From Escherichia phage ev_rybdy3, in the sequence record PQ819470.1: 64,000 nt of DNA, one strand, 5' to 3'. Below the pieces are notes generated by a model. That model was not told the DNA's origin. It searched no databases and worked only from the letters and a program-made list of their open reading frames with translations. The position numbers were made by a program, and so were the translations under genes. Numbering within the stretch: the first letter of the stretch is position 1; the number at the start of each line of letters is the position of its first letter. Positions 24,416 through 24,561 of the stretch are shown here, in pieces.

Positions 24416-24561
24416 TACAGGTATAGCTTATGGGACTCAGTAATGCAGAGTCTACGGTAAAGCAGTCGCCCGTGGTCGAATGACCGTATGCCCATTGGAT
24501 GCATTCCTTTGGTGATGGCTAGGGAGTCCGAGCGTAGGTTCGAATCCTACACCTGTAACCA
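24416..24561 (+). tRNA. Aberrant tRNA-like element (possible interrupted or degenerate tRNA)
   Basis: Perfect T-arm GTAGG-TTCGAAT-CCTAC, 3' acceptor ACCTGTA + A + CCA; only complementary 5' strand TACAGGT lies 146 nt upstream; candidate D-arm ATGC-CCATTGGAT-GCAT at 24488-24504. Confidence 0.35.

Follow-up and report, generated by a model that had tools for sequence, protein, structure and literature searches.

The function of two small RNAs of phage T4, species 1 and species 2, is still listed as unknown in reviews and in a 2022 omics study (PMC3014915, PMC9697503). Phages also encode forms of the tRNA-like domain (TLD) of transfer-messenger RNA (tmRNA), and a TLD-only RNA inhibits the host tmRNA (PMC4131195, PMC11915505). 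In a survey published in 2014, mycobacteriophages and Bacillus phage G were the only phages found to have tmRNAs; mycobacteriophage DS6A has the TLD-only form, and it is a similar TLD-only molecule that inhibits tmRNA (PMC4131195). Here we describe a gene to be set beside these RNAs. It lies in a stretch of 64,000 nt of Escherichia phage ev_rybdy3 (sequence record PQ819470.1; the whole stretch is called the window below), where a first-pass annotation made from the letters alone had pointed to an oversized tRNA-like element with 146 nt between its acceptor ends. The sequence, conservation, covariation and genomic context of the element, and the absence of an anticodon arm, were observed directly; on this basis, we consider it probable that a real gene is present here, whose product is a non-decoding small RNA that is derived from tRNA and mimics its top half.

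The 146-nt element, its carriers and a sister RNA

The element, which we term type A, is read from the sequence at positions 24416–24561 of the + strand, and its parts are listed in Table 1. The 3'-terminal 28 nt make up a textbook tRNA end, and the sole complementary 5' strand closes 146 nt; acceptor strands, T-arm, discriminator A and CCA were all as the first-pass annotation had them. A pattern scan of both strands of the window for a T-arm followed by 7 nt, any nucleotide and CCA found only two sites, the type A element and a tRNA-Arg gene, and by our estimate an exact 7-nt complement no more than about 200 nt upstream is expected by chance in about 1% of cases. Every independent assembly gives the same 146 nt, which excludes an assembly artefact, and no normal 76-nt tRNA was found at the related loci, relatives either carrying the 146-nt unit or lacking it wholly. 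The type A element is neither a chance match nor an assembly artefact. The surrounding region, earlier taken to be 450 nt without an open reading frame (ORF), is indeed free of ORFs save mechanical ones, but it is larger, about 539 nt, and runs from 24051 (after a coding sequence at 23817–24050 annotated in the record of an identical phage) to the ATG at 24590.

ARAGORN made no call on the element with its default, pseudogene or tmRNA (-m) settings, and Rfam at gathering thresholds matched in the window only the tRNA-Arg gene. The latter, a canonical tRNA-Arg(UCU) at 22545–22620 (72.4 bits), was the only standard tRNA of the window by either program; it lies on the same strand 1.8 kb upstream of the element amid many small ORFs, and the element itself stands alone. 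Under permissive settings the Rfam tRNA model (RF00005) matched the T-arm alone (model positions 44–63, 14.8 bits vs a gathering score of 29), and at E ≤ 10 the only other Rfam match was an insignificant one to sroC. No covariance-model match to a different RNA family was found with Rfam; the tmRNA models (RF00023, RF01849–51, RF04321) and the group I and II intron families gave none on the element. The element has the 7-bp covarying acceptor stem, the discriminator, the CCA and the arm with a canonical UUCGAAU T-loop that are expected of a tRNA, but not the length (146 nt vs 70–95 nt) or a score above threshold. The anticodon arm proposed in the first-pass annotation, with the loop GTGATGG, is present as sequence; however, the candidate anticodon stem CCUUUG/CUAGGG is imperfect, and the equivalent region of a sister RNA (type B, see below) is 2 nt shorter and cannot pair. 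A conserved 7-nt anticodon loop was not found in either type, and since it has no such loop, the RNA cannot read codons.

The window region is 99–100% identical to Escherichia and Shigella phages ev_rybdy8, ShigP1, PGN6866 and KM01, and close to more than 100 kuraviruses of the phiEco32/SU10 type. BLAST found type A at 91–100% identity in 12 phage records, 10 of them Kuravirus and two Klebsiella Schitoviridae (Efbeekayvirus). The unit is also present in one IMG/VR contig and one metagenome contig. Three sublineages hold the kuravirus copies, whose identity is 100% in the window type, 96% in the FH3 type and 91% in the XT type, and the copies of the Klebsiella phages HS106 and GADU21 are 95% identical to the window element. 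SU10-type kuraviruses have neither the element nor about 50 nt before it and about 25 nt after it, the flanks being otherwise conserved, and the element is thus an accessory insertion in kuraviruses. In HS106, which has an array of six tRNAs, the element exactly occupies the gap between tRNA-Tyr and tRNA-Ser and is joined to them by CCA-AAT-T junctions identical to those that separate the true tRNAs; the AAT-T junctions are kept on both sides of the window copy. These comparisons indicate that the element is horizontally mobile.

The BLAST searches from type A touched Klebsiella phage KP8, and in this way the sister RNA, type B, was found. Type B is 124 nt long and occurs in about 45 records of N4-like phages (Gamaleyavirus and Kaypoctavirus), in none of which it is annotated as an RNA gene, and also in IMG/VR and metagenome contigs; a core of 50 nt is nearly invariant in the N4-like records. 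Current annotation pipelines miss all these RNA genes. Types A and B have their acceptor end in common, with U1-A72, A73 and CCA invariant and A2-U71 and C3-G70 near-invariant (wobble departures only, in one sequence each), and also the T-arm and a collinear 3' domain. The 3' domains align with a score of 25 vs 4.4 ± 5.4 in shuffles, a value reached by 1 of 2000 shuffles. The 5' domains are unlike in sequence; each has a hairpin at the same place, of 6–7 pairs in type A and 7 bp in type B, with a 5-nt loop in both. No match was found in 5,426 complete E. coli genomes, and when the genomes of 185,579 species of bacteria and archaea were scanned for the pattern, ordinary tRNAs and chance matches alone came up. 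Similar scans of IMG/VR, metagenomes and genome contigs for further members gave types A and B, ordinary tRNAs and chance matches only. The RNA family is conserved, covarying and phage-restricted, and it occurs in, and moves between, several groups of E. coli, Shigella and Klebsiella phages that are used in therapy.

The upstream spacer in FH3 and XT32 is about 130 nt longer than in the window and carries a motif, motif 2 (TATCTGAGTGACTWTAAAAACAGATGGAGCCAGGTGGAATCCCTGGCAA), which is also found in Gamaleyavirus (FH3, L002:~520–605; PhAPEC5, L010:2372–2434; KP8, L009:7374–7436). Motif 2 precedes the 146-nt element in the FH3 and XT32 kuraviruses, but a 67-nt mini tRNA-like RNA in the N4-like phages, and the window copy resembles the FH3 arrangement minus about 130 nt that include motif 2. 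Motif 2 could be a promoter or a leader hairpin, and its occurrence suggests that the RNA genes near it move as cassettes.

Covariation, fold and the decoding-tRNA alternatives

When types A and B were aligned jointly with MAFFT, the 5' half proved unreliable, and pairs were therefore counted per type. In the acceptor stem, compensatory changes were found at pairs 4, 5 and 6, with no non-standard pair across 15 distinct sequences: the G-C of the window at pair 6 corresponds to A-U in HS106, and pairs 4 and 5 in type B are U-A/G-C or C-G/A-U. Across the types, the T-arm has A-U or G-C as its third pair and U-A or G-U as its second. In the 5' hairpin of type A, H1, pair 3 changes from A-U to G-C in FH3 and XT32, and pair 1 from G-U to A-U; the type B equivalent, a 7-bp hairpin with a 5-nt loop, has a C-G to U-A change. 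Pairing holds in 99.7% of the type B cells and is lost when the partners are slid; the observed covariation score was reached in 0 of 500 shuffles. No indels were found in any of the 15 distinct sequences. The acceptor stem, the T-arm and H1 are clearly backed by covariation, and the "insert" of about 63 nt that the first-pass annotation had placed between the acceptor and the D-arm turned out to be itself a structured domain with compensatory changes.

Two further stems may complete the fold. A D-like stem of 4 bp plausibly encloses H1: it is invariant within type A (GCUU/AAGC), type B has GCAC/GUGU, which amounts to two compensatory differences if the positions are homologous, and a covariance model of type B (R1) aligns it in nearly the same register. 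A 6-bp stem ending 2 nt before the T-arm (UUGGAU/GUCCGA in type A vs UUGGAG/CUCCAA in type B) is a plausible analogue of the anticodon stem. In XT32 positions 84 and 90 have both changed, in a way that agrees with a local hairpin (24492–24512) competing with the 6-bp stem. The same two changes bypass the stem of the D-arm put forward in the first-pass annotation, ATGC-CCATTGGAT-GCAT (24488–24504), which is present as sequence but unsupported as an arm. The small hairpin at 24474–24485 varies only by a G to A change in its loop, is absent from type B, and competes with a pairing of 24454–24458 with 24483–24487.

The first-pass annotation had left a choice between an interrupted tRNA, a degenerate pseudo-tRNA and a tRNA-like structural RNA. 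If the gene were interrupted, removal of an intron or insert would yield a decoding tRNA, for example Ile-GAU or Val-UAC. The intron option of ARAGORN does give a tRNA-Val(UAC) with a 49-nt intron, some deletions yield calls of tRNA-Ile(GAU) or tRNA-Gln(UUG), and a short direct repeat, GTAT(A)GC, read from the sequence, flanks the 5' domain. These models have mismatched stems, however, and disagree with one another and with those for type B (Arg, Thr); the intron model destroys the covarying H1, and no group I or II signal was seen with Rfam. An intron of 49–63 nt would be too small to splice itself, and E. coli is not known to have an endonuclease for tRNA splicing. An interrupted tRNA is thus extremely improbable. 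When every 5' segment was deleted by brute force, ARAGORN gave weak and mutually inconsistent calls (Gln, Ile or Cys for type A, Arg for type B), and its intron-mode models, which are contrived, were rejected since they break H1.

A second possibility is that a former class II tRNA gene became expanded and is now drifting without function. Most kuraviruses lack the element, the T-loop and helix changes of XT32 and HS106 described below would suit decay, and the 5' region of type B weakly resembles that of phage tRNA-Ser (p about 0.02). Decay is nevertheless hard to reconcile with compensatory changes that preserve three helices, with an invariant 146 nt free of indels, and with retention in two unrelated phage families and in about 45 N4-like records with their nearly invariant core. 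Useless DNA is quickly shed by phage genomes. We regard a decaying pseudo-tRNA as very unlikely. The remaining option, a tRNA-like structural RNA, agrees with the conservation and covariation of the element and with its place as one unit of the HS106 tRNA array.

Several observations weigh against a functional, non-decoding tRNA mimic. The element is dispensable, being carried by 10 of about 130 kuravirus-type records that have the flanking region. There are only 15 variable positions among the type A copies, the internal helices are weakly constrained, and two folds compete for the 3' domain. The minimum-free-energy fold closes the acceptor stem, but its stability is unexceptional (z = −1.37). 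In the T-loop, the XT32-type copies (L003:604–749) have U55C, an odd change if the RNA is a strict mimic of tRNA. Finally, model R1 aligns to the window element over its full length with 34 bits (E = 4e-8), a score nearly equaled by the 28–31 bits that it gives class II phage tRNA-Ser (UGA); because tRNA-Ser scores almost as high, the match shows tRNA-likeness rather than specific kinship and hints that the family arose from class II tRNA genes, and the case for kinship between A and B rests on the 3' domain and the acceptor end.

The T-loop of the XT32-type copies reads UCCGAAC, with U60C in addition to U55C. The HS106 copy (L004:604–749) differs at both 40 and 71, which pair with each other in one candidate helix, and the two changes leave an A-A mismatch. 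Either constraint has been relaxed in these lineages or the candidate 40/71 helix is not real.

Just downstream of the element lies a gene (24590–24901) that different records label "endonuclease", "transcriptional regulator, D5-like" or "hypothetical". Its identification as a homing endonuclease was rejected: Pfam shows a helix-turn-helix of the sigma-70 region 4 type (31.2 bits) and a weak Myb-like match, and no nuclease domain.

Table 1. Parts and surroundings of the type A element, and the tag frame of N4-like phages (window positions unless a locus is named).
Feature	Position	Strand	Remark
Upstream spacer	24368–24415	+	Arrived together with the element; AAT immediately before U1; absent from SU10-type kuraviruses
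Acceptor stem, 5' strand UACAGGU (DNA TACAGGT)	24416–24422	+	Pairs with 24551–24557
Candidate D-like stem GCUU/AAGC	24426–24429 with 24460–24463	+	Encloses the 5' hairpin domain (24426–24463)
5' hairpin H1, GGACUC ... GAGUCU	24433–24453	+	Compensatory changes
Small hairpin GGUC-GAAU-GACC	24474–24485	+	Type A only; in the minimum-free-energy and alifold structures
3' domain common to types A and B	24488–24533	+	Motif AUUGGA ... GGU.A..GCUA..GA.UCC.A.C
Candidate anticodon-stem analogue	24495–24500 with 24526–24531	+	Within the 3' domain; ends 2 nt before the T-arm
T-arm GUAGG-UUCGAAU-CCUAC (DNA GTAGG-TTCGAAT-CCTAC)	24534–24550	+	Read from sequence; directly 5' of the acceptor 3' strand
Acceptor stem, 3' strand ACCUGUA (DNA ACCTGTA)	24551–24557	+	Read from sequence
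Discriminator A	24558	+	
Encoded CCA	24559–24561	+	
Downstream spacer AAT-T ...	24562–24589	+	Includes the ribosome-binding site of the next gene
Tag frame (N4-like phages)	KP8 L009:7046–7078; PhAPEC5 L010:2044–2076; also L012–L020, L023, L027, L037, L039, L043, L047		

Possible partners and the tag module of N4-like phages

If the type A gene encodes a mimic of the tRNA top half, its RNA would be transcribed from the + strand together with the surrounding small early-type genes and released in the manner of a tRNA, RNase P cutting before U1 (24416) and 3' exonucleases trimming until they halt at the encoded CCA (24561), and it would accumulate as a stable RNA. In the predicted fold the 7-bp acceptor stem is stacked on the canonical T-arm, presumably as in the L-shape of tRNA, and larger hairpin domains take the D and anticodon positions, giving an expanded cloverleaf. 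The near-invariant acceptor end (U1-A72, A2-U71, C3-G70, A73 and CCA) and the elbow would then be offered to a tRNA-handling protein or complex, and the conserved 3' domain would supply specificity. Our leading guess for this partner is the ribosome-rescue (trans-translation) machinery, which is ranked first because type B always adjoins the tag module described next; our second guess is that the RNA serves as a decoy or sponge for a host factor that targets tRNA.

In KP8 and in all Gamaleyavirus and Kaypoctavirus loci examined, type B lies downstream of a short tag frame (Table 1), at a distance of 88–91 nt, or of 290–430 nt where other modules are inserted. The frame begins GCA AAC GA. (the dot being any nucleotide) and encodes ANDDVVLMAA, ANDDVILMAA, ANDDVVLMVA or ANEEAYLMVA and then TAA. 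Variation in the last two codons falls mostly on the third base (GCT/GCA/GCG and GCT/GCC/GCG), and this pattern in the alanine codons is what a translated tag would show. By our reading of the sequence, pseudoknot-like hairpins lie on either side of it. The Rfam model tmRNA_permuted matches the tag frame at 27–33.2 bits, below its gathering score of 47; ARAGORN misses the module, and similarity to the host ssrA is limited to the start of the tag. The searchable literature returned nothing on the tag peptides or an N4-like tmRNA, nor on tRNA-like RNAs of phiEco32. The N4-like tag module is apparently undescribed and, if functional, would widen the known architectures of trans-translation.

These features bring up another reading, in which types A and B are the TLD of an unconventional phage trans-translation system, either charged and acting with a separate tag RNA or, as TLD-only RNAs, titrating SmpB and so blocking host rescue. 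Besides the constant position of type B after the tag frame, the hairpins, the synonymous alanine variation and the tmRNA_permuted score, this reading draws on the TLD-only RNA of DS6A and the inhibition of tmRNA by a similar molecule (PMC4131195), and on the failure to find a conventional or permuted TLD for the tag frame in the N4-like loci, where neither a second 5' acceptor strand upstream of the frame nor a G3-U70 TLD was seen; at the PhAPEC5 locus the only elements with a T-arm and CCA are type B and the 67-nt mini tRNA-like RNA. In addition, the window element lies about 35 nt after a stem-plus-pseudoknot motif (24305–24379). This motif and about 230 nt preceding it are homologous, at 82% identity, to the 5' part of the tag locus in Gamaleyavirus, which belongs to a different phage family. 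The details fit a tmRNA poorly, however. Position 3:70 is C-G in all type A copies and C-G or U-G in type B, never G3-U70. Type B is self-closed and the tag frame lies 5' of it rather than between the halves of a TLD, a topology unlike that of any known tmRNA. Base-pairing between type B and the tag module amounts to runs of 7–8 nt at most, which we take as chance level, and there is no extended complementarity to hold two pieces together. The tmRNA mode of ARAGORN was silent and the Rfam tmRNA models gave at most 5.8 bits on type B. No tag frame was found in the window or near the HS106 copy, and adjacency may merely reflect the clustering of small-RNA genes. We therefore think it unlikely that A and B are TLDs in this sense, and the absence of a G3-U70 pair, the short pairing runs, the tmRNA models that do not match and the two loci that lack a tag frame also count against our leading guess of a trans-translation partner for the tRNA mimic.

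In a more elaborate version of this idea, A and B would supply the tRNA-like halves of a new ribosome-rescue system of phages, one whose parts are physically unlinked. A separate tag RNA and a self-closed, non-alanine tRNA-like RNA would come from one N4-like locus and act together or against the host tmRNA-SmpB, and the kuravirus and Efbeekayvirus copies would be stand-alone modulators of host trans-translation. This is a speculative extension that we consider quite unlikely.

Other structured elements were noted in these loci. About 320 nt of non-coding sequence (window 24056–24379) are conserved in all kuraviruses aligned, namely the window type, FH3, XT32 and SU10. Within it, a stem of about 16 bp (24305–24320 with 24364–24379) encloses an H-type pseudoknot formed by pairing of 24326–24333 with 24347–24354 and of GGCC at 24339–24342 with GGCC at 24357–24360. 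This motif has compensatory changes among the window, FH3, PhAPEC5 and KP8 and no match in Rfam; it looks like a structured RNA. The 67-nt element (PhAPEC5, L010:2435–2500; KP8, L009:7437–7503) consists of an acceptor stem, a T-arm, ACCA and a 31-nt connector, and is labelled "tRNA-OTHER" in KP8. A 74-nt element of KP8 (L009:6825–6898) is labelled tRNA-Leu and gives no ARAGORN call. In ECBP1-type contigs (L016, about 11000–11080), a closed tRNA-like element that lacks CCA lies shortly before the tag module. In KP8 the last hairpin before type B (L009:7130–7169) has a perfect 7-bp stem followed by N-CCA (UCCCCGU ... ACGGGGA-A-CCA), and its acceptor sequence recurs in the upstream 74-nt element. 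Equivalents of this hairpin occur in L012, L023 and L027 and are absent from PhAPEC5 and St11Ph5. Its 5' side can also pair upstream to form a pseudoknot, recalling the acceptor stems of plant-virus tRNA-like structures.

The decoy envisaged as our second guess can also be set out in its own right, as an RNA that distracts a host anti-phage nuclease or toxin reading the acceptor end, the T-arm or a long extra arm rather than the anticodon. Phage tRNA arrays counter tRNA-targeting defences, for example Septu, which cleaves tRNA-Tyr (PMC13096335; PMC10264068). The neighbors of the HS106 copy, tRNA-Tyr and tRNA-Ser, are both class II, model R1 aligns well to class II tRNAs, and the patchy, horizontally transferred distribution of the element is typical of accessory anti-defence genes. 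Against this stand the anticodon loop, which most characterised tRNA nucleases cut and which is absent here, and the fact that RNAs of this sort are not known to counter any defence system. The case is circumstantial, and we hold a decoy function to be possible but doubtful.

Comparison with known tRNA-like RNAs

As a proposed non-decoding mimic of the tRNA elbow and acceptor that engages tRNA-handling proteins, the type A RNA would resemble the bacterial Y-RNA-like YrlA and the tRNA-like structures (TLSs) at the 3' ends of plant viruses, although Rfam gave no match of the element to the YrlA or viral TLS families. In YrlA, unlike the element, the tRNA-like module is internal and the ends form the Ro-binding stem, and in plant-virus TLSs the acceptor stem is built by a pseudoknot at the end of the genome. 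The class II tRNAs (Ser, Tyr and Leu) of phage arrays are like the element in their spacers, processing context and acceptor/T-arm geometry, and the hairpin abutting the T-arm of the element resembles a long variable arm; they are probably the source from which the family evolved. However, they measure 85–90 nt vs the 124–146 nt of types A and B, which have no 7-nt anticodon loop.

The TLD of tmRNA, including the TLD-only RNA of DS6A, shares with the element an acceptor stem, a T-arm and ACCA and the lack of an anticodon arm. In contrast to the element, a TLD is without D-like and anticodon-like hairpin arms, and the element has no G3-U70; furthermore, its acceptor stem is closed locally and encloses no mRNA-like domain.

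The closest known analogue is T4 species 1 (rnaC), a small stable phage RNA of a size like that of the element (139 nt vs 146 nt). It is encoded beside tRNA genes, where T4 also has species 2 (rnaD), as the element is in the HS106 array. Both have acceptor-like paired ends and a canonical T-arm just before the 3' strand, CCGGG-UUCGAAU-CCCGG in rnaC, and in both two larger hairpin domains (in rnaC a long hairpin and a further hairpin) replace the D and anticodon arms, leaving no anticodon loop. They differ in that the acceptor-like stem of rnaC is imperfect, with two U-U pairs, and its CCA is not encoded, whereas the element has a perfect stem and an encoded CCA; the phage families are also different, and there is no sequence similarity beyond the T-loop. 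At the T4 locus model R1 found tRNA-Leu, and neither rnaC nor rnaD at E ≤ 10, and BLAST from types A and B revealed no similarity to T4-type phages. Because homology is seen neither in sequence nor with the model, we treat rnaC as an analogue only, and on this comparison the type A/B family does not include it. The T4 species 1 and 2 RNAs have reportedly been without a function for about fifty years. That a second, unrelated family follows this design suggests that phages make recurrent use of non-decoding tRNA mimics, which would then be no oddity of T4.

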